64,000 bases of DNA from Nitrospina sp. (lineage in GTDB: Bacteria > Nitrospinota > Nitrospinia > Nitrospinales > VA-1): NCBI GenBank assembly GCA_018673915.1, contig JABHBK010000067.1:123292-187291 (forward strand). Reading direction: 5' to 3'. The notes under the pieces were generated by a model. The model saw only the letters and a program-made list of their open reading frames with translations, did no database searches and was not told the DNA's origin. The first letter of the stretch is position 1, and every line of letters starts with the position of its first letter. Made by a program: the position numbers and the translations under genes. Below, piece after piece: positions 5,745-50,448 of this stretch.

Positions 5745-5957
5745 ATGAAATGGTCTGAAAAACTTTCTCCAAGAGAAATAGAGGTTTGTGGAGTTTTAGC
5801 TGTTGGAAATACAGATCGAGAAATAAGTCAAATATTGGGCATAAGTCTATACACCGTTAAAACCCATTTAAGGAATATTTATTCCAAGACAGAAATCAAG
5901 AATCGGACCAGTTTGGCCGTGGAAATTTTAAAGAGTAAAAACACGCAAAAAGCTTAG
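5745..5957 (+). CDS. HTH-only LuxR/GerE-family transcriptional regulator (70 aa), paralog 1
   Basis: LSPREIEVCGVLAVGNTDREISQILGISLYTVKTHLRNIY is a LuxR-type HTH. Start moved to the ATG at 5745 to match the paralog at 8648..8860. No receiver or ligand domain. Confidence 0.8.
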   Translation: MKWSEKLSPREIEVCGVLAVGNTDREISQILGISLYTVKTHLRNIYSKTEIKNRTSLAVEILKSKNTQKA

Positions 5958-6007
5958 AGACGATCTTTGAAAAACCCAGAATTAAACTTTAAACAAGGGA
6001 GTTTAAA

Positions 6008-8029
6008 ATGAATATGCTCGCCTCGCAATCACCTGCAAGTAAATCCGGATTTCTTGGCCTTTTTGGAGGAGGAAACGGCAGTAATGGATTGATGAAGTCA
6101 TCGGGCGGCCTTCTCTCTTGTTTGGAAAAAATTCAAGCCAACGTATTGGTGGCGGATGCAGAGTTTAAGCTGGTTTACGCTAATTCTAGAGCCATCCATA
6201 CTTTAGAATCCATCAAGGATCAGATTCAAGAAGCATTTGGGGTTAACCTGAACGATATCGTCGGTGGTTCCATCCACCGTTTTCATAAAGACCCGCAAAA
6301 AATTGAAAAAATATTGCGCAATCCTTCTGCTTTGCCGCACACGGCTGAGTTTGGTTTTGGTGGGGTAACGCTTGCCGCTACCATAAACTCAATCAATGAT
6401 TCCAATGGAAGGATCTCCGGTTATGTCGTCAACTGGGAAGATATCACCAGGATAAATCAAACTAAACGGGCTATGGACCAAGTTAATTCAATGATGGAAA
6501 ATGCTCCGGTGAATGTCCTTTACGCCGATAAAGACAGTTTTGAAATTACCTATGTCAACCCTGCTTCCATAAGAACGCTAAAAACCATTGAACAATATCT
6601 ACCCATTCCTGTGGATAAATTGATGGGGCAATGCATAGATGTTTTTCACAAGAACCCCGCGCACCAAAGAAAACTTCTTTCAGACCCGGCAAACTTGCCA
6701 CACCAAGCCCAAATACAGGTGGGCCCTGAGATTCTAGATCTTCTGGTCAGCGCTATTTATGACAAGGATAAAAATTATCTCGGACCCATGGTTACCTGGG
6801 ACGTTATAACTCAAAAGTTAAAGACCGAGAATGAAGTCGCCCAAGTTAACTCTATGATGGAAAATGCCCCGGTGAACGTGCTTTTTGCTGATGCAGAAAC
6901 CTTTCAAATTACTTATATAAACCCCGCATCCGTGACTACACTAAAAACCATTGAACAATATCTACCCATTCCTGTGGATAAATTGATGGGACAATCCATA
7001 GATATTTTTCACAAGAACCCTGCACATCAGCGGAAAATTCTTTCTGATCCCAATAACCTGCCGCATCGCGCACAAATACAGGTTGGGCCTGAGATCCTCG
7101 ATCTTCTGGTCAGCGCTATTTATGACAAGGATAAAAATTATCTCGGACCCATGGTTACCTGGGAAGTGATTACCGAAAAACTGGCGGCTGAAGAACGCGA
7201 AAAAGAACAGAACAAAAGCATGAAATCGGTTCTCGATAGCGTTGCTGAAAAAGCCCAGACCCTTGCCGGAGCCTCAGAGGAATTGACCGCCACCAGTCAG
7301 CAAATGGCCGGAAATGCGGAAGAGACTTCGGCTCAGTCCAATGTCGTCTCCGCCGCCTCCGATCAGGTGAACCAGAACATTCAAACAGTGGCTACCGGTT
7401 CGGAAGAAATGAGCGCAAGCATAAAAGAGATTGCTCATAACGCCAACCAGGCTACCAAAGTCACCAGCGATGCGGTTCAGTTGGCCGAGACCACCAATAA
7501 AACTGTTACCAAACTTGGCGATAGTTCGGCTGAGATTGGCCAGGTCATCAAAGTCATCACCTCCATCGCGGAACAGACTAATCTATTGGCCTTGAATGCC
7601 ACCATTGAGGCAGCACGTGCTGGTGAAGCAGGTAAAGGATTCGCCGTGGTCGCCAACGAAGTCAAGGAACTGGCAAATCAGACCGCCAAAGCGACCGAAG
7701 ATATCAGCAACAAGATATCCGCCATACAAACAGATACTCAGAGTGCTGTAACGGCTATTGGTGAGATCAGCGGGGTTATTGGCCAAATCAGCGATATCTC
7801 CAACACCATTGCCAGTGCGGTGGAAGAGCAGTCGGCCACCACCAACGAGATTACCCGTAATGTTACCGATGCCTCCCGAGGATCTCAGGAGATTGCCGAG
7901 AATATTGCCGGTGTCGCTCAGGCGGCTCATAGCACCACCGAAGGTGCTACGGATACTCAAACAGCAGCCAGTGAGTTGTCTAAACTGGCGGCTGAAATGC
8001 AAAATATTGTCAGCGAGTTTAATGCTTGA
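6008..8029 (+). CDS. soluble methyl-accepting chemotaxis protein with three tandem Aer2-like PAS domains
   Basis: 673 aa with no TM segment and no HAMP domain. Three PAS-like modules lie at about aa 35-155, 158-278 and 279-399. Each has an FHK[ND]P motif and a late conserved Trp. The C-terminal signalling domain carries the hairpin motif [35 protein letters not shown]. Confidence 0.9.
6478..7178 (+). repeat. in-frame 363-nt tandem duplication (PAS2/PAS3) inside the chemoreceptor gene
   Basis: Unit 1 starts at 6478 and unit 2 at 6841. Perfectly identical blocks are 6578-6627 = 6941-6990 (50 nt) and 6737-6801 = 7100-7164 (65 nt). Densely diverged stretches separate them. Confidence 0.9.
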
Positions 8030-8254
8030 TTTCTAATAGTCTTGTCAAGAAGGCTCCGGTTTATCGCCGGAGTCTCCTATATAAAGAAAAGCAGGAGGGC
8101 TGATAAAAGTTGATCCTCGTCATCCACTAAGAGCATCTTGTCCATCTGAGGTTTTTATTCAACTTGACCTCCATTGGTTAACTCTTATGATCCTTCTCTC
8201 AACCCATTTATCATGGTGTAGCAGGGCAACTTTTTGAAATCTTTATATCAGCAG

Positions 8255-8539
8255 CTATATTTTTATTTGGCCTAATTCAAAGTCTCTATATTTACATTCC
8301 TTGCAATGACGGCCCAATAAACGCAATAACTCTTCATGACAACTCGCTAAATTTTCTGAACATATTTGAAGATTTGAATGTATTTCTTTAATGTCCCCAC
8401 CGTACATTAGTCGCCTAATTCTGTTGAAATTTTCAGCTCCTTCGTCTATTTTTTTAAAAATTTTTTTGCGTTCCCTATCAATTTCTTTCTTAAATTCTTC
8501 GTTTTCACATTCTCTCCAACATTGAGGTGAATTATCCAT
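8255..8539 (-). CDS. hypothetical Cys-rich small protein (94 aa)
   Basis: ORF trimmed to MDNSPQCWREC..., preceded by AGGAAG. Six Cys residues in three pairs: CWREC, CSENLASC and CKEC. The central part is charged and helical. Confidence 0.4.
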   Translation of the reverse strand: MDNSPQCWRECENEEFKKEIDRERKKIFKKIDEGAENFNRIRRLMYGGDIKEIHSNLQICSENLASCHEELLRLLGRHCKECKYRDFELGQIKI

Positions 8540-8647
8540 TTTTCTTCCTAGCAATTGGATTCTAAGTAAGAGAAGTTTTATTTAAATTTCTTAGCCGTTA
8601 TACTCTCAGATTCAAAATTTTATTTTGGATTTTCTATGAAATCGACC

Positions 8648-8860
8648 TTAAGACTTTTGTGTGTTTTTGTTCTTTAAAAATTTCACAGTCAAACTGGTTC
8701 GGTTCTTAAATCCTGTCTTGGCGTAAATATTCCTTAAATGTGTTCTAACTGTGTATAAACTAATACCCAATATTTCACTTATTTCTTGATCTGTATTTCC
8801 ATAAGCTAAAACCCCACAAACCTCTTTTTCTCTTGGAGAGAGTTCTTCAGACCATTTCAT
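8648..8860 (-). CDS. HTH-only LuxR/GerE-family transcriptional regulator (70 aa), paralog 2
   Basis: Same length as the 5745..5957 product and roughly 80 percent identical by eye (MKWSEELSPREKEVCGVLAYGNTDQEISEILGISLYTVRTHLRNIY). Confidence 0.8.
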   Translation of the reverse strand: MKWSEELSPREKEVCGVLAYGNTDQEISEILGISLYTVRTHLRNIYAKTGFKNRTSLTVKFLKNKNTQKS

Positions 8861-8972
8861 ATAAACCCTCAGAAGCTATAAGTAAAAGACTTTTGTGGCT
8901 TTAAATTTAAATCCTAAATTTTCTCTGGCTCATGATCTCCATCTATCTCTTATCAGACAACACCCAATAAAC

Positions 8973-9005
8973 ACCTACTAAAATGTAGGTATTGACAATA
9001 CCTAC
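8973..9005. promoter_or_regulatory. nested palindromic operator candidate overlapping a -35 box
   Basis: ACCTAC (8973-8978), 6 nt, GTAGGT (8985-8990), 9 nt, ACCTAC (9000-9005). Bases 8985-9005 form a perfect 21-bp palindrome, GTAGGTATTG-A-CAATACCTAC. It contains TTGACA (8992-8997), which sits 17 nt upstream of TAAACA (9015-9020). Confidence 0.45.
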
Positions 9006-9068
9006 AAATTCGGATAAACATTCTCTTTCTCTTTCTCTTTCTTTTTTTTGACCTCAATTTTTAGGACT

Positions 9069-9941
9069 ATGGATTCAAATATCCATGAAAATCGATCGTC
9101 CTCCGACGAAGCATTTTTTACGAAACAATTAGCTAATAATTTGGAATGTGTTTTTTGGATTGCACCTCCAGATCTTTCGAAAATGCTATACATCAGTAAG
9201 GGCTATGAGCAAATCTGGGGAAAGACTTGCGAAAGTTTATACAAAAAACCAAAATCTTTTTTAGACAATGTTCATAAAGAGGACATAAAAGTTGTAAGAG
9301 AACATTTAAAAGAAATGCATCATAAGGGAACGTTTGATCACAAGTACCGCATTGTCAAACAGACAGGGGAAGTTCGCTGGGTATGGGATCGTGGATTCCC
9401 TTTAAAAAATGAGGATGGTAAAATTTATCAATCCATTGGAATAGTATTGGATATAACAGAGTCCAAACTAAGAGAAGAACGATCTTGTAACCTTATTAAG
9501 ACGATAAAGTCAGACTCTCAAAAACTAAAAAAAGATATTAAAAGTAAAAATTTAGCACTGAGCGAAATAATCCAGCAAATTGAAATCCAAAGGGAATCGT
9601 ACAAAAAAGCTGTGACAACCAATTTGAGAAAAGTTATTTTTCCAATAATTTCTGGGTTGATGAAAAAGGATCCGGCCAACATAAATAATTATCGCCTTTT
9701 GGAACACAATCTGAATACTATTTTTTCCAATTTTGGAATTAAAGTAACGGGAGATAAAGATTTATCCCCCACGGAAGTTGAAGTATGTAATTTCATTAGG
9801 AATGGTTTTCGAACTAAGGATATCGCCGCTGCTATGGGCATTGCTGTCAAAACCGTTGAAAACCATCGAAATAGTATCAGGAAAAAATTAGGCCTGATGG
9901 GTTCTGGAAAGAACCTTACCGCCCATTTGCAAGAAAACTAG
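9069..9941 (+). CDS. PAS domain-containing LuxR-family transcriptional regulator
   Basis: N-terminal PAS fold (...YRIVKQTGEVRWVWDRGFPLKNEDGKIYQSIGIVLDITE), a coiled-coil linker, and a C-terminal LuxR HTH (LSPTEVEVCNFIRNGFRTKDIAAAMGIAVKTVENHRNSIRKKLG). Start set at the first ATG, 9069. Confidence 0.8.
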   Translation: MDSNIHENRSSSDEAFFTKQLANNLECVFWIAPPDLSKMLYISKGYEQIWGKTCESLYKKPKSFLDNVHKEDIKVVREHLKEMHHKGTFDHKYRIVKQTGEVRWVWDRGFPLKNEDGKIYQSIGIVLDITESKLREERSCNLIKTIKSDSQKLKKDIKSKNLALSEIIQQIEIQRESYKKAVTTNLRKVIFPIISGLMKKDPANINNYRLLEHNLNTIFSNFGIKVTGDKDLSPTEVEVCNFIRNGFRTKDIAAAMGIAVKTVENHRNSIRKKLGLMGSGKNLTAHLQEN

Positions 9942-10098
9942 GCAACTCGCCACTTTTTCTCAGCTGATTTTACCCATTACTAGCCGATTAGAAGGTGTTG
10001 CTAGTTGCCCCCCTGTGGAAGAGTTGAATCCCTGAAAACAAAATGTTACGATACATGCCAAGCTTTTAAAATCCCGATTTTTGCATTATTGGCCGGCC

Positions 10099-12167: not shown

Positions 12168-13096
12168 TGGAACCCAGAAAAATTAAAATCGGAAGCAGGG
12201 GGAGTCCCTTAGCATTGTGGCAAGCTAATTGGATTAAAGGACAGTTGGAATCACAGAACCCTGACATCCCTGTAGAAATTGTCATCATCAAAACTTCCGG
12301 AGACAAAATTCAGGATGTTCCATTGGCAAAAATTGGTGGCAAGGGATTATTCGTCAAGGAAATCGAAGAAGCTCTACTGAGCAAAGATGTCGATTTTGCA
12401 GTTCACAGCATGAAAGACATGCCTATAAAATTTCCCTTTGCATTATGTATCGCTTCGGTGACAAAAAGGGAGAATCCTTTTGACGCTTTGATTTCAAAAA
12501 ATGATATTAAGTTGGACGATCTTCCTAAAGGCGCAAAAATCGGGACCGGCAGTCTGCGAAGGATTTCACAATTGCTACATTATCGCCCTGATCTGGATTT
12601 GGTTCCGCTCCGTGGAAATTTGGAAACGAGAATCAAAAAACTGGAAACAGAAGGGCTGGATGCGATCATTTTAGCTGCGGCAGGACTAATTCGCATGGGG
12701 TGGGAGGAGCAAATTTCTGAAATCATCAGTCCAGAAATTTTATTGCCGGCCATGGGGCAGGGTGCTGTTGGAATAGAAGCCCGTAAAAATGATGTGGACA
12801 ATCAAATCCTTCTAGCCGATATGGATGATGAAAATACTCATCTAGCGCTGGATGCTGAAAGAGCTATTGTTACTCAGCTTGAAGGCGGCTGCAATGTTCC
12901 CATTGGTGCTTTTGCGACCATAGAGGAAGATGAAATGACGGTAAAAGGGTTGGTCGCCAGCCTTGATGGAAAAACCATTTACAAAAAAGAAGTAAAAGGG
13001 AACAAAGTCCACGCCATTAACCTGGGTAAAGAATTGGGCAACGAGTTATTAGAAATGGGTGGCGATAAGATTATGCAAGAAATTCATTCCAGCTGA
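12164..13096 (+). CDS. hemC: hydroxymethylbilane synthase (porphobilinogen deaminase)
   Basis: IKIGSRGSPLALWQA..., GTGSLRR and the cofactor-binding GGCNVPIG are typical HemC motifs. Confidence 0.95.
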   Translation: MMEPRKIKIGSRGSPLALWQANWIKGQLESQNPDIPVEIVIIKTSGDKIQDVPLAKIGGKGLFVKEIEEALLSKDVDFAVHSMKDMPIKFPFALCIASVTKRENPFDALISKNDIKLDDLPKGAKIGTGSLRRISQLLHYRPDLDLVPLRGNLETRIKKLETEGLDAIILAAAGLIRMGWEEQISEIISPEILLPAMGQGAVGIEARKNDVDNQILLADMDDENTHLALDAERAIVTQLEGGCNVPIGAFATIEEDEMTVKGLVASLDGKTIYKKEVKGNKVHAINLGKELGNELLEMGGDKIMQEIHSS

Positions 13097-13235
13097 GGGT
13101 CCTCCTCAGCATAAAAACTTCCAAAACCGTTTCATTCATAGACGAATGTCTGTAATGGCAATGTGTTTCTAAAATCTGCTAAAATACAAAAGGTTATAGA
13201 ATAGTATCCCTCTTAGTTATGCAGGTGTATTGCTG

Positions 13236-13844
13236 ATGCGTAAAAACAGGTTCCTTTTAATTTCTTTTGGCCTTTTCATTGGTTTGTTCGGTGTTGCCGA
13301 GGCAAACCATCTAAGTGGAAAAGTTGAGGTAGAAGGTGGAAAGGAATTAAAAAATATGATTGTGTATTTGGAGCCAGCAGAGTCATTGTCGAATAAACCT
13401 GATCCTATGGTGCATAAAGTTCTGCAAAAAGGCAGACGGTATAATCCAGACCTGATTGTAGTGAATCCCAGAGATAAAATTCAATTTTTGAATGATGAAG
13501 ACCGAGAAATTGATCACAATATTTATTCGCTAAGCAAATTTAAAAATTTTGATTTGGGATTAGGGGAAAGGGGCTCCGTTCTGGAGATAGAGATCGACAA
13601 CATTGGCTCCGGAAATTTTTATTGCTCTGTTCATCGAATGATGGAAGGTCGAATTGTCTCTATAAATACCAGACATTTTGCAATATTAGAGAAGCCGGGA
13701 AATTTTATATTGCCCAATATTCCACCTGGTAATTGGGTGGCAAAAGTTATTGTTTTTCACAAACGTTACAAGTCTATCCCGATCAATATTTCATTGAGTG
13801 GTAAGGCTCACGAGAATATTGAATTAAAGGTGGTAAAAAAATGA
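13236..13844 (+). CDS. exported blue-copper (amicyanin/plastocyanin-like) protein with a C-terminal Ig-like domain
   Basis: Signal peptide ...GLFGVAEA. Cupredoxin blocks IQFLNDEDREIDHN and YCSVHRMMEG give a type-1 Cu ligand set of H, C-x2-H-x2-M. The C-terminal part, NIPPGNWVAKV..., looks like a carboxypeptidase-regulatory-type beta sandwich. ATG at 13236 is preceded by AGGTG. Confidence 0.65.
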   Translation: MRKNRFLLISFGLFIGLFGVAEANHLSGKVEVEGGKELKNMIVYLEPAESLSNKPDPMVHKVLQKGRRYNPDLIVVNPRDKIQFLNDEDREIDHNIYSLSKFKNFDLGLGERGSVLEIEIDNIGSGNFYCSVHRMMEGRIVSINTRHFAILEKPGNFILPNIPPGNWVAKVIVFHKRYKSIPINISLSGKAHENIELKVVKK

Positions 13845-14557
13845 TCAAAACATTAGTGCTAATTTCGATTATTACTTTCATCACCTCTTGTTCATCGGCA
13901 CCTGAAATTAATCCAGGCAAGGGTGCTGTTTATGGAATCATCTCGGCTGAAAGCCACAAAGCTATTTTAGCAAAAGCCTCAAAGGAAAATGATGGGATTT
14001 ATAGCGGATTAGGAGGATTGATCTTCACAGATCAAATGGTTAATTATCCCAAGCTTAAGGAACTTTTTGTTTGCCTGTTGGACCCTTCGTTTACGGATGG
14101 AAATGACCATTTGCTCGTTGCTACCGATGAGGGTATGTCCCACAAATCCCTGGCTGTTGGCAAAGGTGATCGGTTGACAATACAAAATGATTCGTCTGAT
14201 ACGCTCACCTTTTTTCTCGCTGGCAAAGAAGACGAAATTCAAATATTTTCTCCCATTAATACTGGTGAACGTTCTTCCTTGGTTTTGGAATTCGAAGGTG
14301 ACCTTGAATTGGGAAGCGATGAGAATGAATCAATGCAAACCACCTTGTTGTCGCGAAAAGGTTTGGTTGGGCAACAACATTCTTCAGGCGAACAATATGT
14401 TTTTGAAAACCTCAATCCCGGTCAATACAAAATTTTATTCTGGTTTTGGCGATTGGGTTTGATCGAGAAAAATATAATTATTAAAGCCGGGGAGAATATC
14501 GAGTTGAACCAGATTCTATCTGTCGATAAAATTCTGGGAAGCAAAAATGAGCCTTAG
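13841..14557 (+). CDS. lipoprotein, Cu-ligand-less paralog of the upstream cupredoxin protein
   Basis: Signal peptide ending FITSC. Collinear with the upstream product: DRLTIQNDSSDTLTFF aligns with DKIQFLNDEDREIDHN, GERSSLVLEFEG with GERGSVLEIEID, and NLNPGQYKILF with NIPPGNWVAKV. The His, Cys, His and Met ligands are absent. ATGA overlap with the upstream gene. Confidence 0.6.
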   Translation: MIKTLVLISIITFITSCSSAPEINPGKGAVYGIISAESHKAILAKASKENDGIYSGLGGLIFTDQMVNYPKLKELFVCLLDPSFTDGNDHLLVATDEGMSHKSLAVGKGDRLTIQNDSSDTLTFFLAGKEDEIQIFSPINTGERSSLVLEFEGDLELGSDENESMQTTLLSRKGLVGQQHSSGEQYVFENLNPGQYKILFWFWRLGLIEKNIIIKAGENIELNQILSVDKILGSKNEP

Positions 14558-16457
14558 TGCAAAAATATTTCTATCCTTTTTTGTTTTCTTCTCTCTCCTG
14601 TTGGGGCTGACTCTTTATATTGCCAATAGTCAGACCGAGCAATTTGAAATTAAAAACCTTTCCCTGAAATTACGAGCGGCCCACTTGAGGTTTGACCAAC
14701 AGTTAAACCGTGAACTACTTCACACTTTAAAACTTGCCAAAACGCTCATATTAGATCAGAAGTTCAGATCCTTCCTATCCCAGATTAAAGATAATTTTTA
14801 CTCATTTTCCGAGGAAATCGCACTGGATGCTAATGCGGATGCGGTTTTTATGGTGGATGACACACTTCAAGTTCGCGGCATCTATCCGACGGATGATAAA
14901 TTTAAAAGCTGGGTTGTTGCAAATCTGGATCGATTCCCTATTAAAGAAATTTTGGATACCGGAGTGGATAAAAGGGGAATTATTTCCGGTGGCGGGAAAT
15001 TGATCAGCTCAGTGGCTTTGCCGCTCAAAGAATCGTTAAGCGATGACTATGCCTTAGGGGCAATGGTAATTATAAAATTTATTGATGATCAGTGGGTGGA
15101 AGAATTAATGGGCGAACAAATTGAACAAAACTTCCTTCAAGTTTTGTTCTTTAGTGATTTCAAAATTGTGGCGGATAATGTATCCGATGATATGGGTCAA
15201 AATTTGATTGAAAAATTGAAAGAAATTCCAATTGGGCCGGGGATGTTTGTCAGTGAAGGCGATAGACATATTACTCAAAAAGGTTATTACGATAATAGTG
15301 ATAATGCTGGTTATTTATATGCTACCAATCTGGATTCTTCGTTGATTCCATTTAAGATTATACAAAATAAGATTTTAATGACAGGAGTAGCTGTTTTGTT
15401 TATAGGCATTCTTTTTTCCATACTTTTTTCAAAAAGAATCGCTATGCCATTGAGGGCGCTATTGAAGGGTACCAAGGGAGTTAGTGAGGGCAATTATGAT
15501 TTTGAAATAAAGCATACCTCTAGTGATGAAGTAGGGCAGTTGGCGACAGCTTTTAATCACATGCTAAAAGGCCTTAGAGAAAAGCAATATATTCAAGACA
15601 CTTTTGGAAAGTATGTTCATCCTACAATTGTTGCTGATATCCTTTCAAATCCTGAAAAAATCCAACCTGGCGGTACAAGGAGTTATCAAACAGTTTTATT
15701 CTGTGATGTTGCAAACTTTACCAGCTTTAGCGAAACCATGGCGCCGGAAGCTTTGATTAAATTGCTCAATGAATATCTAGGGGCTATGACGGAGGAAATA
15801 TCAAACAGTCAGGGTGTTTTGGATAAATATATTGGAGATGCCATTATGGCATTCTGGGGTCCGCCCTTCACGCCAGGAAATCATTCGTTGCTGGCCTGTC
15901 AGGCAGCTCTTAGTATGCAGACTATTCTCGAAACATTAAGGCCTAAATGGCTCTCTCAGGGTCTTCCAGAAATTAAAATGAGAGTGGGAATAGCAACCGG
16001 CCATATGATCGTGGGCAATATTGGTTCAGAAAAAAATCTTGAGTATACCTGTATTGGAGATACCGTTAATTACAGCTCCAGATTAGAAGGAATCAATAAA
16101 ATGTATGGAACCGACATTATTATTGATATTTTTACAAAAAAAAATGTGGAGCACGATCTGCTTCTTAGAGAACTAGATACGATTCAAGTAAAGGGCAGAG
16201 CCCAGGGTTCTCAAATTTTTGAAGTCCTGGCTGAAATGAAAAATGTACCGCAGGAACAGGTTCGATTAAAGTCCGATTATGAAGCCGCGTTGGCTTTATA
16301 TCGTGATGGGGAGTTCGTTGAGGCAAAGGAGGCATTTATCGCCTTATTTAAAGCTTGTGGGGATATTCCAAGTAAAATAATGTCCGAACGTTGCCAAGAA
16401 TACATTGATTTTCCACCTGAGGGCTGGGTTGGAATAACTATTATGAAAGAGAAATAA
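14547..16457 (+). CDS. membrane adenylate/guanylate cyclase (class III) with periplasmic sensor domain and HAMP
   Basis: Order of parts: TM1, about 250 aa extracytoplasmic, TM2 (ILMTGVAVLFIGILFSILF), HAMP (DEVGQLATAFNHMLKGL), then cyclase motifs VLFCDVANFTSFSE, KYIGDAIMAFWG and GDTVNYSSRLEG. 11-nt overlap with the upstream gene. Confidence 0.85.
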   Translation: MSLSAKIFLSFFVFFSLLLGLTLYIANSQTEQFEIKNLSLKLRAAHLRFDQQLNRELLHTLKLAKTLILDQKFRSFLSQIKDNFYSFSEEIALDANADAVFMVDDTLQVRGIYPTDDKFKSWVVANLDRFPIKEILDTGVDKRGIISGGGKLISSVALPLKESLSDDYALGAMVIIKFIDDQWVEELMGEQIEQNFLQVLFFSDFKIVADNVSDDMGQNLIEKLKEIPIGPGMFVSEGDRHITQKGYYDNSDNAGYLYATNLDSSLIPFKIIQNKILMTGVAVLFIGILFSILFSKRIAMPLRALLKGTKGVSEGNYDFEIKHTSSDEVGQLATAFNHMLKGLREKQYIQDTFGKYVHPTIVADILSNPEKIQPGGTRSYQTVLFCDVANFTSFSETMAPEALIKLLNEYLGAMTEEISNSQGVLDKYIGDAIMAFWGPPFTPGNHSLLACQAALSMQTILETLRPKWLSQGLPEIKMRVGIATGHMIVGNIGSEKNLEYTCIGDTVNYSSRLEGINKMYGTDIIIDIFTKKNVEHDLLLRELDTIQVKGRAQGSQIFEVLAEMKNVPQEQVRLKSDYEAALALYRDGEFVEAKEAFIALFKACGDIPSKIMSERCQEYIDFPPEGWVGITIMKEK

Positions 16458-21743: not shown

Positions 21744-22553
21744 TCAAGATGGTTCATTAATCTCTTTACGTTTTGATAGTTTTTCGGTGATCATAGCATA
21801 CGCCATTACAGTGATCATAGGGAAAAGGGAGGCAAATGCGATCAACCCAAATCCATCTATCAGTGGGGAACGCCCCGGAACATTTGAGGCTAACCCGATA
21901 CCTAATGCGGCGATTAACGGAACTGTTACGGTAGAGGTGGTCACTCCGCCTGAATCATAAGCCAGGGGAATTATCTGCTTAGGGGAAAACAAAGTCTGGA
22001 TAAGTAAAAATGCGTATCCAGCAACAATGTAATAGTGCAAGGGATTGCCCATCACTATTCGATACACACCCAGGGTCACACCCGAGGCCACGCCTAACGC
22101 AACAGAGATTCGCAGACCCCAAGCTGAAATGGCCCCTGTGGTAATATCACGGGCCTTATATGCCACAGCTATCAAAGCGGGCTCTGCAAGTGTGGTGGAA
22201 AAGCCAATCAAAAAAGCAAAAATATAAGTCCACAAATAAATTCCGGGATCCATCTGGTCAGAATTTTCAAGAGTTTCTATTAAAGCAGAATCGTTACCCG
22301 CAAGAAATTTTAGATCGGTTAATTGATTGGCCATTTGTGAGCCAATGGGAAAAACACATTGCTCCAAGCCCACGATAAAAATTCCTAGCCCTAGAACAAC
22401 CATTCCAAGTCCAATTATTTTTTGTTTCAGATGAGGTATGGCTTTTCGTATTGCCACTGCCTGAAAAAAACTTAAAACAATAATAATAGGAAGAATATCC
22501 AGCAATGTGCCGGATAGAGCATCTATCAATGTGTTAAAGATTTCAGAATTCAT
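21744..22553 (-). CDS. DUF1538 family polytopic membrane protein (subunit B)
   Basis: 269 aa, paralogous to the upstream gene. Shared blocks are PIG..MA, STT.AEPAL, AYDSGG.TTST.TVPL.AALG.GLA and DGFGLIA.ASL.P. Confidence 0.7.
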   Translation of the reverse strand: MNSEIFNTLIDALSGTLLDILPIIIVLSFFQAVAIRKAIPHLKQKIIGLGMVVLGLGIFIVGLEQCVFPIGSQMANQLTDLKFLAGNDSALIETLENSDQMDPGIYLWTYIFAFLIGFSTTLAEPALIAVAYKARDITTGAISAWGLRISVALGVASGVTLGVYRIVMGNPLHYYIVAGYAFLLIQTLFSPKQIIPLAYDSGGVTTSTVTVPLIAALGIGLASNVPGRSPLIDGFGLIAFASLFPMITVMAYAMITEKLSKRKEINEPS

Positions 22554-23299
22554 TAGCTGCCCACCCCATAAACAAAAATCCCATATCCCAGAACAAATAT
22601 AATAGGGCTGAGGCTCGCCAGAGCGATCAGGCCAAATCCATCAAGCATGGGGTTTCGGCCCCGTATTGAAGTAGCTAAACCTACACCTAAAGCAGCTACC
22701 AAAGGAACGGTAATCGTGGAAGTTGTGATTCCGCCGGAGTCGTAGGCAATTCCAATGATTTCTTGAGGAGCAAAAAATGTTGTAATTACAATAAGGGTGT
22801 AGCCTCCCATAATGAACCAGATAAACGGCCACCCTTTCAAAATACGCAACACTCCTAAAGCAATAGCCAAACCTACTGACAGGGCAACCGTATAACGAAG
22901 GCCTAATACAAAACTTGCAACTGAATTCTCGGTATTTTCGATAGCACCTGCTCCTGCAGCTAACCCACCGGCTTTACCTGCGATTACTGTTAGAGCGGGT
23001 TCAGCAATGGTTGTGGAAAAACCCAGAGCGAATCCGAAAAAAATTATCCACCAGGGGTTGCCTTTGAGGGCAAATTCATTGGCCATCTTTTCGCCGATAG
23101 GGAACAGGGCACTTTCCAGACCCAATATAAAAATGAAAAGCCCCATGACAACGAGAAAAATTCCAAAAATAGTCTGGTCTAAGTGGGGAAAAGGTTTTTG
23201 AATAATGACCAACTGAAAAAATGCAATAACGACTATAATAGGAAACACGTCCATAAAAGCCGAAAAGATTTTTGAGAATAAAAGCTTGGCTATATCCAC
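22553..23299 (-). CDS. DUF1538 family polytopic membrane protein (subunit A)
   Basis: 248 aa with the same conserved blocks as subunit B. Its TAA stop overlaps the subunit B ATG (TAATG). Confidence 0.7.
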   Translation of the reverse strand: MDIAKLLFSKIFSAFMDVFPIIVVIAFFQLVIIQKPFPHLDQTIFGIFLVVMGLFIFILGLESALFPIGEKMANEFALKGNPWWIIFFGFALGFSTTIAEPALTVIAGKAGGLAAGAGAIENTENSVASFVLGLRYTVALSVGLAIALGVLRILKGWPFIWFIMGGYTLIVITTFFAPQEIIGIAYDSGGITTSTITVPLVAALGVGLATSIRGRNPMLDGFGLIALASLSPIIFVLGYGIFVYGVGS

Positions 23300-23499: not shown

Positions 23500-24042
23500 A
23501 TGAGCACTGAGGAATTGAGTCAGGATGATTTTGATCAGGACAACTTTAATAAAGAGATGCTATTAAATATTTTTTACAATAGCAAAGGAAGTATTGATTC
23601 GATCAATGCCGCTATTGATGCCAAAATATATGGAACCCGTACCAGGAGTATTACGTTTTTTGAGAAATTTGTTCGGGCACGTTTAACCCTTAATCCGAAA
23701 ATTCTCAGACTTGTCGATCTAGAAATAACCCCGTTCGAAATCATTTATCTCAGTCAATACCCAGGTTTGGAAAAAGTCGAAGAATTAGATTTAAGAAAAA
23801 ACCAATTGGGGGATAAGGGATTAGATGCTCTTTTGGTATCCGAAAAGCTAGGAAATCTTTTAAAGTTGGATTTGAGGAATAATCAAATTACCCGAAAGGG
23901 TATGGAGATTTTGGCAAAAACGGAGAAATTGGAGAGGTTAGAAAAACTGGATCTTAGGTCAAATAAAATTGGCAAGGCTTGGGAAACCAAGTTGCTATCA
24001 ATCGGGAAATTCCCAAACTTAACTTCATTGAAAACAGTTTGA
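23500..24042 (+). CDS. leucine-rich repeat protein (ribonuclease-inhibitor-type repeats)
   Basis: Repeats LDLRKNQLGDKGLDALL, LDLRNNQITRKGMEILA and LDLRSNKIGKAWETKLL have an RI-like period of 28-29 residues. No signal peptide. Confidence 0.7.
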   Translation: MSTEELSQDDFDQDNFNKEMLLNIFYNSKGSIDSINAAIDAKIYGTRTRSITFFEKFVRARLTLNPKILRLVDLEITPFEIIYLSQYPGLEKVEELDLRKNQLGDKGLDALLVSEKLGNLLKLDLRNNQITRKGMEILAKTEKLERLEKLDLRSNKIGKAWETKLLSIGKFPNLTSLKTV

Positions 24043-24398: not shown

Positions 24399-25256
24399 TT
24401 ATTGTTGCAGTAGCAATAATACTCCTTCTGGAATAAGGTTAGCTTGTCCTACCATTGCTGCTGAAGACTGAACCAAAAGTTGTTGTTTGGTTAAGTTAGC
24501 TACCTCTTCGGCTATATCTGCGTCTGAGATTACTGAATTTGCAGCATATAAATTTTCAACTGACACATTTAAAGTAGCCAGAGCCCTCACTAATCTATTT
24601 TGGGTGGCTCCAATGCTTGCCCTATAGCCTAAGATGGTTTCCTGTGCCGCTTCCACTTGAGCAAGGCTATCCACTGATTTTTCAAAAGATGATGTAGATA
24701 TGCCATCAAGGCCAAGGCTTGATGTATCTGTCGATTCAATATCTACTAGTTTGTTTAAATTTAACTGACTTTCTTCATCTGAATTAAGTCCGGTTGATAT
24801 AGTTATCTGTTTAGAAGTAGTAACACTTCTACCTAATGTCCCATCTAAAAGTTTTAAACCAATAAAGTCAGTTCCGGTAGCGATTCGGTTGAACTCATCT
24901 TTAAGGGTATTTATTTCAAGTTGTAGAGTACCTCTTGTATTTTGATCAATAGCTCCACCCGCAACAGATAAAACCTCGCGCAAACGGGTTAGGATACTTG
25001 TTTGTTCGTTTAATCCGCCTTCTGCAACATTGATGAGACTAATCCCATCATTCAGGTTTTTTGTGGCTTGTCTAAGTGTCCGTGCATCGGAGCGCAACAA
25101 TTCAGAGACCGATCTTTCGGCACTATTAACGTCTTTTCCGCTTAAACGATTTCCGGAGGCAATTCTGCCTATAACCAGACCAAGGTTATCGTTGTTGATA
25201 CTCAGCCTGTTTTGGGCAACAGTAGAACTTAGATTATTGAAGATTCGTAGTGGCAT
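24399..25256 (-). CDS. fliC: flagellin (short, D0/D1-only type)
   Basis: N-terminus MPLRIFNNLSSTVAQNRLSINN. The C-terminal region ATQNRL...NLYAANSVISDADIAEEVANLTKQQLLVQSSAAMVGQAN matches the conserved flagellin termini. 285 aa. Confidence 0.92.
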   Translation of the reverse strand: MPLRIFNNLSSTVAQNRLSINNDNLGLVIGRIASGNRLSGKDVNSAERSVSELLRSDARTLRQATKNLNDGISLINVAEGGLNEQTSILTRLREVLSVAGGAIDQNTRGTLQLEINTLKDEFNRIATGTDFIGLKLLDGTLGRSVTTSKQITISTGLNSDEESQLNLNKLVDIESTDTSSLGLDGISTSSFEKSVDSLAQVEAAQETILGYRASIGATQNRLVRALATLNVSVENLYAANSVISDADIAEEVANLTKQQLLVQSSAAMVGQANLIPEGVLLLLQQ

Positions 25257-48576: not shown

Positions 48577-50448
48577 ATGACTGATTCATTTTTAAGCAGA
48601 AACCTGGATTCCTTAAAGAAGGTGGATATAGCCTTGTTTAATAAAATTGTTTCTCTTAAAGGTTCTACTGAGTATGTAGTGACCCGTTCCAAATCGGGGC
48701 CTCCCACACTTTCCTATATGGATAGTCGAGGGAAAAAAAAGCAAATTCATAGTAATTATGATCCTGTCTTAGAAGCTACCCGTTATCTTAAAACTTTAAA
48801 TATTGAGGAATCTCTAAACTTTTTAGTTATTGGTTTGGGGTTGGGTTATCAGGTTTTTGAAATAATTAAAAGTGCTACGAGTCAAACAAAAATATATATT
48901 TTTGAAAAGGACCCAGAGTTATTCGCCCTTGCTCTTCGCGAAGTTGATTTTTCCATTATATTGGAGCACCCGGGAGTCAGGCTATTTGTTGATACGGACC
49001 CTCGTTTTCTAGATGGCTTGCTGGAATCAGAACAAACCAACTTCGCTCTCAATAATTACTGTGTTGTTAAGCAAAAATCTCTCGTGGACGAGAACTTAAA
49101 TTATTTTGATGTATTGTTAGAAGAAATAGAAAAATATTTTAATGAAGCAAAAATTAATTTAAAAACACAGTCCATTCATTCCAAACTCTATTATAAAAAT
49201 ATATTTTCCAACTTGAATGATTTCCTTCAAAGTCCGGGTATTAAGTCTTTAAGAAATTGTTTGCCTGATATTCCAGCAATAGTTTGTTCTGCCGGCCCTT
49301 CTCTTGATAAGAATATTCAACTTCTTAAAACAGCACGGAAAAGATTTTTCCTGATCTCTGTAGGCACAGCTCTAAAACCATTACTTTATAACGGAATCAA
49401 ACCTGACGTAGTAGTTTCAATTGACCCCGATGAACAAACAATTAATTCATTCGATTTCATAAATGATACTGATGATTTTTGGCTTTTATACAATTCAGCG
49501 GTTCCAAACGCCATTCCTAAAGAATTTCCCAAGCGCAGGCTGGCTTTTGATTTAGAAGTTTACCTTGCTGAATGGTTCAGAAAATACACAGACAAAAAAG
49601 GGGATTTGGGGAAAATATCTTCAGTCGCTCATTCTGCTGTCAAGTTTGCTCAATATTTAGGAAACTCCCCAGTTATTTTAGTGGGTCAAGATCTATCCTT
49701 TTTTAATCAACGCCAGCATTGCCTTCATTCTTTTTATCATGAAGAACATTTAGATAAGGTGAGCAGTTTGAATCCACTTTCATATTGGAACCAAATAAAA
49801 TATTCAAACTTTGGTCCAAATTTAACTAAAAATGTGGATCTGTTTGGAGAAATCACCACCAGCACCAAAGCTATGGAAAGTTACAACCATTTATTCTCTA
49901 AAATTTTGGATGACTCGCATCTTTTGATTAATGCTACCGAAGGTGGGATGTCCATAATAGGCACGCAAAACCTATCCTTAAGGGAGACTATATATACCCA
50001 TTGCAAAAAATTGATCCATGCGGAATTGAAACCTGATGAAAGTGAACAAGAGAACGAAGAAAAACCCTACAATTCTCTGCGGGATCCTATCTTGATGCAA
50101 ATTCAATTTCTGCAAAATATCTCTGAGGAACTGGAGATAATTAGAACTAATTATTTAATCCCAAATACTCAGGACTCTAAAAACAGGCAACCATTTATCG
50201 ATGAGATGGAAAAAATAAATGCAAAAATTCTGAAAAACAAAGAAACGGTTTTTTTACTTCAAGGATATGATTTTGAAGGCTTTTCTAACTGGTATCGCTC
50301 TAATAGCCAGATACAGAGAAAAAAGGAATTATCAAAAGGGATTAATCTATCAGATGAAGAATTTAAGCGGGATCGTGAATACTTTGAGGCTTTGGTAGAG
50401 TCCGTAGCATACCTGATTACTAATTTTAAAAATTCCACCTCCCATTGA
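48577..50448 (+). CDS. DUF115 / motility-accessory-factor (Maf)-like protein
   Basis: 623 aa. The central region, PAIVCSAGPSLDKN...ISVGTAL...PDVVVSIDP...LVGQDLSF, matches the MptE-like/DUF115 core found in Maf flagellin-glycosylation proteins. Confidence 0.65.
   Translation: MTDSFLSRNLDSLKKVDIALFNKIVSLKGSTEYVVTRSKSGPPTLSYMDSRGKKKQIHSNYDPVLEATRYLKTLNIEESLNFLVIGLGLGYQVFEIIKSATSQTKIYIFEKDPELFALALREVDFSIILEHPGVRLFVDTDPRFLDGLLESEQTNFALNNYCVVKQKSLVDENLNYFDVLLEEIEKYFNEAKINLKTQSIHSKLYYKNIFSNLNDFLQSPGIKSLRNCLPDIPAIVCSAGPSLDKNIQLLKTARKRFFLISVGTALKPLLYNGIKPDVVVSIDPDEQTINSFDFINDTDDFWLLYNSAVPNAIPKEFPKRRLAFDLEVYLAEWFRKYTDKKGDLGKISSVAHSAVKFAQYLGNSPVILVGQDLSFFNQRQHCLHSFYHEEHLDKVSSLNPLSYWNQIKYSNFGPNLTKNVDLFGEITTSTKAMESYNHLFSKILDDSHLLINATEGGMSIIGTQNLSLRETIYTHCKKLIHAELKPDESEQENEEKPYNSLRDPILMQIQFLQNISEELEIIRTNYLIPNTQDSKNRQPFIDEMEKINAKILKNKETVFLLQGYDFEGFSNWYRSNSQIQRKKELSKGINLSDEEFKRDREYFEALVESVAYLITNFKNSTSH

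Follow-up and report, generated by a model that had tools for sequence, protein, structure and literature searches.

A tri-PAS chemoreceptor of Nitrospina with Aer2-type PAS domains and no HAMP domain

Described receptors and the Nitrospina gene

Tri-PAS-heme Aer2 receptors from V. vulnificus and L. interrogans were published in 2022 (Stuffle et al. 2022, PMC10107281, for VvAer2). All nine of the Aer2-type PAS domains tested bind heme via the E-eta His. Their affinities for O2 are similar, and O2 elicits a response from the receptors (PMC10107281). In VvAer2, the last PAS domain signals, the penultimate one modulates and the first is largely dispensable; this first domain is easily oxidised, is unaffected by replacement of its Trp, and may, as has been proposed, sense redox or another ligand (PMC10107281). 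In PaAer2 from P. aeruginosa, a Leu-to-Ala replacement in H-beta gives a receptor that is locked signal-on (PMC10107281). In VvAer2, a di-HAMP separates PAS3 from a 36H signalling module; the receptor also has an EWEEF tether and is encoded in an F7 che cluster (PMC10107281). VcAer2 from V. cholerae has two PAS domains and a di-HAMP, and both PaAer2 and VcAer2 are 36H receptors with a tether, found in F7 clusters. [quoted passage not shown] 2020). LiAer2 from L. interrogans is reported to have three N-terminal Aer2-type PAS-heme domains and to keep the di-HAMP, but to be membrane-embedded, with a periplasmic domain, a hexacoordinate deoxy heme and an inverted response in E. coli (PMC10107281, PMC13401364).

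Receptors that join a cytoplasmic cofactor-binding sensor to an MCP signalling domain include Azospirillum AerC, Azorhizobium IcpB and HemAT, and the published domain descriptions of these list no HAMP. However, AerC has two FAD-PAS domains and HemAT a globin fold, while IcpB has one PAS, with reported heme, that according to secondary literature clusters with Aer/AerC-type and not Aer2-type PAS domains. None of the three carries an array of Aer2-type heme-PAS units.

The gene described here lies on the forward strand at positions 6008 to 8029 of the 64 kb window, which is the whole stretch of DNA that was analysed. It encodes a 673 aa MCP made up of three 121-residue Aer2-type PAS units followed by one uninterrupted helical signalling module, with no HAMP. 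The interval 6110 to 7180 highlighted in an earlier note on this DNA corresponds to aa 35–391 of this ORF. A Shine-Dalgarno-like AAGGGAG (5995 to 6001, + strand) was recognised by reading the sequence and, as it sits 6 nt upstream of the ATG (position 6008), it supports the long start that includes PAS1. In the assembly collection, 26 blocks (24 contigs read) contain the identical protein, for which the NCBI record bears the name Nitrospina sp. The NCBI gene call for it (P0065) starts at M156 and omits PAS1.

The first 34 residues (6008 to 6109) form a Gly/Ser-rich segment that is predicted to be disordered (pLDDT <50 for residues 1–35). No TM-like hydrophobic stretch was found anywhere in the protein, the maximum Kyte-Doolittle score for a 19-mer being 1.04, and a membrane-bound receptor like LiAer2 was rejected on this basis. 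A Pfam scan returned MCPsignal together with PAS_8, PAS_9 and PAS_10; the PAS assignments are to generic families and some fall below the gathering threshold. The best NCBIfam match was the Vibrio Aer2 equivalog NF041847, 'aerotaxis transducer Aer2', at 330.5 bits against a curated cut-off of 1200 bits, and the three PAS units are colinear with it (query residues 32–394 on model positions 37–412). The AlphaFold2 model has a mean pLDDT of 78.6; as it is a monomer with a pTM of 0.32, its inter-domain geometry is unreliable. When the full-length model was used as the Foldseek query, the top matches were multi-domain MCP and PAS proteins, and only the single-domain matches (3vol, 6ceq and 4hi4) are informative.

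The PAS array and its predicted heme pockets

When each PAS unit alone was compared with all PDB sequences, the only matches were the Aer2 PAS structures 4hi4 and 3vol (P. aeruginosa) and 6ceq (V. cholerae PAS2), with E values for the best match of each unit of 1.5e-9 to 1.2e-15. PAS1 (aa 35–155; 6110 to 6472, + strand) is the divergent unit, matching 4hi4, 3vol and 6ceq at E values of 1.5e-9, 3.7e-9 and 6.7e-9, respectively. PAS2 (aa 156–276; 6473 to 6835, + strand) and PAS3 (aa 277–397; 6836 to 7198, + strand), the latter joined to the output helix, match 6ceq at 2.6e-15 and 1.2e-15 and 3vol at 1.5e-13 and 1.6e-12, respectively. The best single-domain matches of the model in Foldseek were 6ceq (TM 0.82, rmsd 1.6 Å), 3vol (0.79, 1.9 Å) and 4hi4 (0.78, 2.4 Å), at 35–37% identity. 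PAS2 and PAS3 share the fold and pocket residues of PaAer2/McpB (3vol, 4hi4) and VcAer2 (6ceq) at 36–41% identity (37–39% for PAS2), and the FHKNPAHQR block is identical. By sequence comparison, all three units are Aer2-type PAS domains.

The residues H234, W283, L264, H239 and H251 of PaAer2 were mapped column by column onto the three units. His93 (6284 to 6286), His214 (6647 to 6649) and His335 (7010 to 7012) align with H234 and are the E-eta His of PAS1, PAS2 and PAS3, respectively, each a predicted proximal heme ligand; short helices at 89–92, 210–213 and 331–334 in the AlphaFold2 model correspond to these regions. Trp143 (6434 to 6436), Trp264 (6797 to 6799) and Trp385 (7160 to 7162), all six codons being on the + strand, align with W283 and lie in the I-beta strands VVNWEDIT, MVTWDVIT and MVTWEVIT; Trp385 is the predicted O2-stabilising residue of the output-proximal sensor. 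In each of the three units the Trp follows the His at a distance of exactly 50 residues, which is far beyond chance. Both residues are invariant in every unit of 44 orthologues, and were present in 386/388 PAS units of relatives.

PAS2 and PAS3 each retain a complete predicted pocket, with the FHKNPAHQR block whole and the gating H-beta Leu, equivalent to L264 of PaAer2, present as L245 and L366, respectively. This Leu is found in 100% of the middle and last units of relatives. PAS1 lacks the AHQR block and departs from the Aer2 pocket at three positions, K98 (for H239), E100 and A124 (for L264). The Ala at the gating position marks a 'first-unit' subtype that accounts for 77/114 first units of relatives. 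The C-terminal DxT motif is intact in PAS1 (D145-I-T147), and in PAS2 and PAS3 it reads [DE]-V-I-T, with the Asp replaced by Val, an acidic residue at W+1 and the Thr invariant. Coupling details may therefore differ from those of Aer2. In VvAer2, in contrast, none of the three units has lost DxT or the H-beta Leu.

These results bear out what the earlier note had proposed from the sequence, namely three tandem Aer2-type PAS domains with a conserved Trp about 50 residues after the His block, complete pockets in PAS2 and PAS3, and a PAS1 that has lost AHQR. The strings that it quoted are present, and the PaAer2 heme segment that it gave agrees with the 3vol and 4hi4 alignments. Alignment to Aer2 PAS structures had been set beforehand as the test, and in it His and Trp fall on the heme-pocket positions.

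PAS1 is only 32–34% identical to PAS2 and PAS3, whereas PAS3 is 83% identical to PAS2. In the DNA, the similar pair is visible as a 300 nt direct repeat (6478–6777 and 6841–7140) with copies that are 83% identical and 363 nt, or 121 codons, apart. In close Nitrospina orthologues, PAS2 and PAS3 each have their own orthologous unit, so the duplication predates the divergence of these proteins. VvAer2 resembles the Nitrospina protein: both are soluble MCPs in which three Aer2-type PAS domains stand in tandem, every one of them carrying the E-eta His and the I-beta Trp, and in both one pair of units is much closer to each other than to the third. However, the pair in VvAer2 is PAS1/PAS2 (59% identity) and that in the Nitrospina protein is PAS2/PAS3, and we conclude that the two arrays expanded independently.

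Heme binding is a prediction here, and the Pfam matches are to generic PAS families, some of them sub-threshold, so it may be asked if the units lack a cofactor and act in dimerisation or as spacers, or if their ligand is something other than heme, the His and Trp being conserved for structural reasons. Against this, the His, the gating Leu and the Trp that bonds O2 are almost absolutely conserved in 388 units, identity to Aer2 PAS domains seen heme-bound in crystals is 35–41%, and the PDB matches are solely to the heme-PAS of Aer2. We consider this alternative highly improbable.

Junction, signalling module and genomic setting

PAS3 is connected to the MCP N-arm by a junction at T389 and a helical linker of approximately 18 residues (7172 to 7228, + strand; helix in the AlphaFold2 model), at the point where relatives have a HAMP or di-HAMP. 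No Pfam match to HAMP was found in the 673 aa protein at E≤1, and the AlphaFold2 model has one unbroken helix over 389–672. Comparison with four relatives (P0106, P0057, P0062 and P0103) revealed a 52-residue HAMP (..GDLTQ..V.GED.IGQMGEGL..) in each of them and a gap at exactly that point in the Nitrospina protein. The distance from the last Trp to the hairpin tip is 155 residues here, compared with 225 in tether-bearing canonical relatives, and in HAMP-less relatives it steps mainly by 7 (141, 148, 155 and 162). A cryptic HAMP in the linker was rejected on these four grounds: the empty Pfam search, the continuous helix, too few residues between Trp and tip, and the 52 aa gap. The earlier note was thus right in describing a soluble receptor without HAMP.

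The kinase-control module (7229 to 8026, + strand) matches Pfam PF00015 MCPsignal (E 6e-35; 121 bits against a cut-off of 34.6) and, in the PDB, Tsr and TM1143. The conserved hairpin tip is present, with Glu540 at 7625–7627 (+ strand). A motif scan and reading of the sequence identified a heptad series of putative methylation sites, E424-E425/Q431-Q432/E438-E439, in the N-arm (7277 to 7324, + strand), and a partner, EEQSAT (E606–Q608), at 7823–7831 (+ strand). The N-arm series resembles the established methylation-site pattern of E. coli Tsr. The C-arm comprises 133 aa, or 19 heptads, running to the C-terminus (..NIVSEFNA), and the same distance of 133 from tip to C-terminus was found in nearly all homologues. 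Relative to TM1143, the C-arm has a 21-residue deletion, and relative to Tsr each arm has one heptad fewer in the aligned core, with a longer distal end. This points to a module that is 38H-like rather than 36H, a label derived from length and gap arithmetic. The protein, which ends ...NIVSEFNA, has no tether pentapeptide of the form x-[HFYW]-xx-[HFYW] at its C-terminus. This motif was found in 1/140 HAMP-less relatives, compared with 8/14 of the two-HAMP class.

A count of MCPs among the 150 best library representatives gave 37 without HAMP, 25 with a single HAMP and 14 with two. Relatives with four, five, six and seven PAS units were also found. In the contig scan, which used MCP hairpin-tip patterns, most of the 80 loci were unrelated MCPs and only approximately 20 also matched the PAS region. 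The lineage of the Nitrospina protein is large and uncharacterised; its members have at most one HAMP and are annotated only as PAS-containing MCPs. The earlier note took one or two PAS domains to be the range among characterised Aer2 receptors, a view overtaken by the tri-PAS receptors published in 2022. Its suggestion that three PAS domains without HAMP would be unusual holds in part: three is not extreme beside the four to seven of relatives, and the absence of HAMP is unusual relative to characterised Aer2 receptors only.

Truncated globins are fused to or adjoin some relatives, which fits a heme and gas-sensing theme. Relatives P0001, P0064 and P0109 are MCPs with PAS and globin domains, a combination of PAS and truncated globin that they share with the Cc-5 MCP of Corallococcus coralloides (PAS, Bac_globin and MCPsignal), which was described in silico (PMC6194562). 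Unlike Cc-5 MCP, the Nitrospina protein has no globin domain.

No Che-family Pfam match was obtained for the ORFs of at least 150 aa that were scanned across the 64 kb window, and no che genes were found in four other orthologue or relative contexts. Flagellin and Maf genes are present in the same window. The neighbourhood with hemA-hemC is kept only among near-identical contigs, and orthologues at 84%, 83% and 69% identity lie in unrelated neighbourhoods. A functional link to the hemA-hemC operon was therefore rejected, and its proximity, which the earlier note had thought might be coincidental, is best seen as just that.

Is this a bona fide Aer2, that is, an F7/Che2-type 36H receptor that, like its counterparts in Pseudomonas and Vibrio, acts in a stress pathway outside motility? 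The best NCBIfam match is the Vibrio Aer2 equivalog and the PAS domains are Aer2-type. However, that score is far under the curated cut-off, and the di-HAMP, tether and F7 che cluster of VvAer2, PaAer2 and VcAer2 have no counterpart in the protein or in the window. The C-arm has 19 heptads, not 18, and its indels relative to Tsr are different, while the relatives with the 225-residue Trp-to-tip spacing fall into a class of their own, with a [WF]EEF tether. Canonical Aer2 orthology was rejected for want of di-HAMP, tether, a che cluster among the scanned ORFs of the window and a sufficient NF041847 score, and there is very little chance that the protein functions in such a pathway.

Proposed function and significance

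We propose that the gene product is probably a cytoplasmic, dimeric chemoreceptor with three Aer2-type heme-PAS domains, in which PAS3 drives the kinase-control bundle via a continuous helix without HAMP. Each PAS most likely holds one b-type heme via its E-eta His (H93, H214 and H335). By analogy with PaAer2 and VvAer2, O2, or possibly NO or CO, would bind in the distal pocket of PAS3, displace Leu366 and be stabilised by Trp385, and this would move the I-beta strand and the [E]-V-I-T389 junction. As there is no HAMP, the movement would pass directly along the continuous coiled-coil helix, through the linker of approximately 18 residues, into the 38H-like four-helix bundle. The bundle would set CheA kinase activity and hence flagellar behaviour, with adaptation provided by the putative EE/QQ/EE methylation sites. 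The division of labour in VvAer2 is the best available model for the array. PAS2, with its complete predicted pocket, would most likely modulate PAS3, as the penultimate PAS domains of VvAer2 and VcAer2 do. PAS1, the conserved divergent subtype, probably still binds heme and may act as a tuning, scaffold or redox unit. To our knowledge, canonical Aer2 systems exert no direct flagellar control, and 'aerotaxis' is therefore an assumption for the Nitrospina receptor.

The physiological signal could be NO, CO or the redox state of the heme instead of O2, and the three units might sense different ligands and integrate them. NO would be relevant to a nitrite oxidiser at the boundaries of oxygen-deficient zones, and PAS1 is a conserved, distinct subtype that has lost AHQR and carries Ala where the gating Leu is expected, as do 77 of the 114 first units. 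The easily oxidised, Trp-insensitive PAS1 of VvAer2, with its proposed redox or other-ligand role, sets a precedent, and the signal-on lock of PaAer2 with Leu-to-Ala implies that a natural Ala alters gating (PMC10107281). However, all nine tested Aer2-type PAS domains bind O2 at similar affinities in receptors that respond to O2. None of the O2-related residues (His, Trp and Leu) is missing from PAS2 or PAS3, and no sequence feature of the Nitrospina protein is specific to NO selectivity. A signal other than O2 is thus unlikely, and we favour O2 sensing by PAS3.

A wider reading is possible, though we hold it to be doubtful. It sees a widespread 38H-like lineage, distinct from Aer2, with three to seven Aer2-type heme-PAS units and sometimes truncated globins, in which the last unit is wired to the bundle directly or via a single HAMP. 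The array would then be a multi-heme integrator in which the Ala-bearing 'first-unit' subtype senses NO or redox and the distal units O2, and the receptor would steer flagellar aerotaxis of Nitrospina along oxygen-minimum-zone gradients.

Neither the sensor type nor the tri-PAS layout is new, and soluble MCPs without HAMP are known as well; only the direct connection from PAS to signalling domain is unstudied. All of the studied Aer2 receptors that we know of relay the PAS signal through a di-HAMP. An Aer2-type PAS-heme unit fused by a continuous helix to an MCP bundle is a simple system for studying how PAS motion drives a chemoreceptor, and sister proteins that differ by exactly one HAMP, together with heptad-stepped linkers, add to its mechanistic value. 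Public gene calls truncate the Nitrospina tri-PAS protein, dropping PAS1. One survey of oxygen-deficient zones used an HMM for the aer receptor gene to look for aerotaxis genes (PMC10359470), and an aer-type model probably does not recover the Nitrospina receptor family. Current understanding is not overturned by this receptor, and its value, which is modest, lies in mechanism, ecology and annotation. In the ocean, Nitrospina is the principal nitrite oxidiser, and the boundaries of oxygen-minimum zones hold it in abundance. If one of its chemoreceptors carries a dedicated heme-based O2 sensor, this would offer a concrete way of studying how the organism positions itself.

Three Aer2-type PAS units in a soluble MCP

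The feature picked out in the earlier note lies wholly within a single ORF, 6008..8029 (+), that encodes a 673 aa MCP and has a Shine-Dalgarno-like AAGGGAG 6 nt 5' of its ATG. A Gly/Ser-rich N-terminus predicted to be disordered (aa 1–34) is followed by three 121-residue repeats, PAS1 (35–155), PAS2 (156–276) and PAS3 (277–397), and, in an AlphaFold2 model (mean pLDDT 78.6), by a continuous helix (389–672). Pfam placed an MCP signalling domain at residues 477–642 (E 6e-35), in addition to several generic PAS families. As no 19-residue window of the protein reached membrane-helix-grade hydrophobicity (maximum Kyte-Doolittle 1.04), we conclude that it is soluble. Between PAS2 and PAS3, identity is 83% at the protein level and also 83% over 300 nt of DNA at 363-nt spacing; PAS1 shares only 32–34% identity with them. 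NCBI gene calls for identical or near-identical proteins are shortened to 518 aa, starting at M156 (relatives P0065, P0101 and P0118), and others to 539 aa (P0069, P0095–P0099), so that PAS1, within aa 1–155 of the MCP (window 6008–6475), is wholly or partly absent from the annotated product. The Shine-Dalgarno sequence, the homology of PAS1 to Aer2 and more than 40 full-length orthologues favour the long ORF.

The presence of three tandem Aer2-type PAS domains was confirmed. All of the PAS motif strings reported earlier are found in the protein, with the His and Trp exactly 50 residues apart in each unit. When each unit was searched separately against every PDB sequence, only three entries stood above noise, all of them heme-bound Aer2 PAS domains: 4hi4 and 3vol, from Pseudomonas aeruginosa Aer2 (PaAer2), and 6ceq, PAS2 of Vibrio cholerae Aer2. 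PAS1 matched them at E 1.5e-9 to 6.7e-9, and PAS2 and PAS3 more strongly, at 1e-12 to 1e-15. The same entries were the best single-domain structural matches to the full-length model (TM 0.78–0.82, rmsd 1.6–2.4 Å, 35–37% identity). The 121-residue chain of 4hi4 we take to be PaAer2 residues 173–289 plus a four-residue tag, with which the numbering fits. In a five-way alignment, the His and Trp of all three units map to PaAer2 H234, the E-eta His that is the heme ligand according to a review (H93, H214 and H335 in PAS1, PAS2 and PAS3, respectively), and W283, the I-beta Trp that stabilises O2 (W143, W264 and W385). The H-beta Leu that forms the distal gate, L264, corresponds to A124, L245 and L366, H239 to K98, H219 and H340, and H251 to H111, H232 and H353. 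The DxT coupling motif is kept in PAS1 (D145-I-T147); in PAS2 and PAS3, [D/E]-V-I-T stands in its place, the acidic residue being shifted by one towards the N-terminus.

The premise that characterised Aer2 receptors have one or two PAS domains is outdated, as the tri-PAS-heme Aer2 of Vibrio vulnificus (VvAer2) has been published (Stuffle et al. 2022; PMC10107281); Leptospira interrogans Aer2 likewise has three PAS-heme domains. The earlier note was right about the sensor type and the missing HAMP, and wrong about novelty. In the VvAer2 study, all nine Aer2-type PAS domains tested bound heme via the E-eta His, and also O2; signalling comes from the last PAS and is modulated by the penultimate one, and VvAer2 PAS1 is mostly dispensable, readily oxidised and unaffected by Trp replacement (PMC10107281). 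As replacement of the H-beta Leu with Ala locks PaAer2 signal-on (PMC10107281), the natural Ala124 of PAS1 is noteworthy.

Departure from canonical Aer2

In the 'Aer2 core' as defined by the Watts laboratory, a di-HAMP stands between the last PAS-heme domain and a kinase-control domain. Further features given by Ortega et al. 2020 are membership of the 36H class, a gene placed within an F7 che cluster, and the C-terminal tether x-[HFYW]-xx-[HFYW], which they term 'a fundamental feature'. The window protein differs from this description, or does not clearly agree with it, in HAMP content, 36H class, tether and che cluster alike, and its identification as a canonical Aer2 was rejected.

No HAMP was found in it by Pfam, even at E<=1. 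Trp385, the last I-beta Trp, lies 155 residues from the hairpin-tip Glu540, and relatives P0106, P0057, P0062 and P0103 have a 52-residue HAMP (..GDLTQ..V.GED.IGQMGEGL..) exactly at the gap in the query; that of P0106 is also a precomputed Pfam match. Exactly one inserted 52-residue HAMP sets sister proteins (P0106, P0108, P0056–P0058, P0060, P0062, P0063, P0071, P0102, P0103 and P0112) apart from the HAMP-less form (last PAS to tip, 196 versus 144), and together they make up a natural series with and without HAMP.

Sorting the fetched relatives by Trp-to-tip distance gave 140 proteins without HAMP (124–165), 36 with one (196–221) and 14 with two (222–280; mode 225, i.e. 126 plus a di-HAMP). 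A [WF]EEF-type tether is present in 1, 3 and 8 of these, respectively, and the median tip-to-C-terminus lengths are 133, 133 and 177. As a positive control, these classes support the reading of HAMP content from spacing. Among the best 150 representatives, unbiased toward the query clade, 37 are HAMP-less, 25 have one HAMP and 14 have two, so the coupling of Aer2-type PAS arrays without a HAMP is a common arrangement in nature and, to judge from the literature that could be searched, an uncharacterised one. HAMP-less distances cluster at 141, 148, 155 and 162, heptad steps that would fit a continuous coiled-coil connector.

The C-arm, from tip to C-terminus, is 133 residues (19 heptads), as in nearly all homologues. 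It is 21 residues shorter than that of TM1143 (44H); relative to Tsr (36H), there is one heptad fewer per arm within the aligned core, but each arm reaches further distally. These lengths and gaps, which do not amount to a formal class assignment, indicate a 38H-like rather than a 36H signalling module. The protein ends ..VSEFNA, without the tether pentapeptide. No che gene was found among the scanned ORFs of at least 150 aa across the 64 kb window, or beside orthologues and relatives in four other contexts. The protein reaches 330 bits with the NCBIfam Vibrio Aer2 model, whose cut-off is 1200 bits, though its three PAS units are colinear with those of the model.

Conservation and evolution of the PAS units

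Within the assembly collection, 26 blocks contain the identical protein, and there are over 60 orthologues of 669–681 aa at 79–87% identity. Across an alignment of 44 sequences, none of the three His and three Trp varies. When a PAS-unit HMM was used to scan the 120 best homologues, the E-eta His and the I-beta Trp were each found in 386/388 units of proteins with at least three units, and in these proteins the gating Leu is kept in 100% of middle and last units. In 77/114 of their first units, Ala replaces this Leu, and Asn236 and Arg241 are likewise replaced, by Asp and Glu, respectively. This shared pattern marks PAS1 as a conserved subtype rather than a degenerating copy. PAS2 and PAS3 are each nearest the same-numbered unit of near orthologues, and their duplication is therefore older than the divergence of the Nitrospina clade.

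Three units is no maximum, as among the same 120 homologues ten have four units, 13 five, two six and one seven. Searching 1.84 billion cluster representatives with a profile yielded 4578 proteins with Aer2-type PAS domains (829 at E<=1e-30); of the best 150, most are MCPs that have 2 to 7 units. Six or seven tandem units on one MCP, far more than the three of any characterised receptor, are seen in P0005 (1125 aa), P0121 (1294 aa), P0074/P0075 (1006 aa) and P0138 (1378 aa); a residue check of P0005, P0074 and P0075 found both His and Trp in all but one unit. Many of the related poly-PAS MCPs carry a truncated-hemoglobin domain (Bac_globin, PF01152) fused N-terminally (P0001, P0056, P0062, P0070 and P0077) or C-terminally (P0064, P0109, P0116 and P0120), or a PF00042 globin (P0006 and P0117), and a separate 104-aa Bac_globin gene lies directly downstream of the P0105 orthologue (contig L085, 12106–12420). 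This suggests a recurring pairing of two kinds of heme sensor.

Genomic context and putative signalling route

The MCP gene lies between two oppositely oriented stand-alone 70-aa LuxR/GerE HTH genes that are 80% identical to one another (5745–5957, +; 8648–8860, −). Just past the second is a gene for a 297-aa PAS_3-GerE regulator (9048–9941, +), and this trio is conserved in near-identical contigs. In L001, an otherwise syntenic metagenomic contig, an rve/rve_3 integrase gene and a 164-aa ORF (13006–14507) are inserted between the second GerE and PAS-GerE genes, at window ~8900–9000; the window lacks this insertion, which looks like an IS element polymorphic in the population. GC content falls to 0.34 at 8001–10000, whereas the window as a whole has ~0.40 and the MCP gene 0.47; within this region lie the second GerE gene, the beginning of the PAS-GerE gene and a Cys-rich 99-aa ORF with no assigned function (8255–8554, −). 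About 2 kb downstream of the MCP gene, a set of cytochrome-c-assembly-like, hemA and hemC genes begins, with hemA at 2.9 kb. The arrangement is common only to near-identical contigs, and the genes around orthologues of 84%, 83% and 69% identity are unrelated to those seen here, so the proximity of heme biosynthesis genes is, as suspected, coincidental. Further downstream (~6.5 kb) is a gene for a 636-aa HAMP and adenylate/guanylate-cyclase protein (14547–16457, +), preceded by ORFs at 13230–13844 and 13841–14557 without a Pfam match. The window also includes two adjoining DUF1538 membrane-protein genes (21744–23299, −) and a gene for a small leucine-rich-repeat protein (23500–24042, +), unusual for a bacterium.

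By homology, the E-eta His of each PAS unit would ligate a b-type heme. Gas bound in PAS3 and stabilised by Trp385 would displace Leu366, and the I-beta strand would shift together with the junction E-V-I-T389. Without a HAMP, the change would run via a helical linker of ~18 residues into the methylation helices, where motifs are present (EE424/QQ431/EE438 series; EEQ606 on the return arm), and finally reach the tip that binds CheA. PAS2 would act as a modulator of PAS3, and PAS1 may serve to tune the array or as its scaffold, or may sense redox state or a further ligand. The window contains a flagellin gene (24399..25256, −) and a Maf/MptE-like gene (Maf-type flagellin modification, glycosylation type; 48577..50448, +), with no accompanying che genes, and the organism is probably flagellated. 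Control of swimming by the receptor is thus plausible; canonical Aer2 systems do not directly control flagella (PMC10107281).

The window protein carries an Aer2-type tri-PAS array, probably heme-binding, but is otherwise not an Aer2: it is an orphan chemoreceptor of Nitrospina that lacks HAMP and has a 38H-like signalling module. Its value is modest and it leaves current knowledge unchallenged; it could serve as a minimal natural setting in which to study PAS-to-MCP coupling, and is a candidate O2 sensor of an ecologically important nitrifier.
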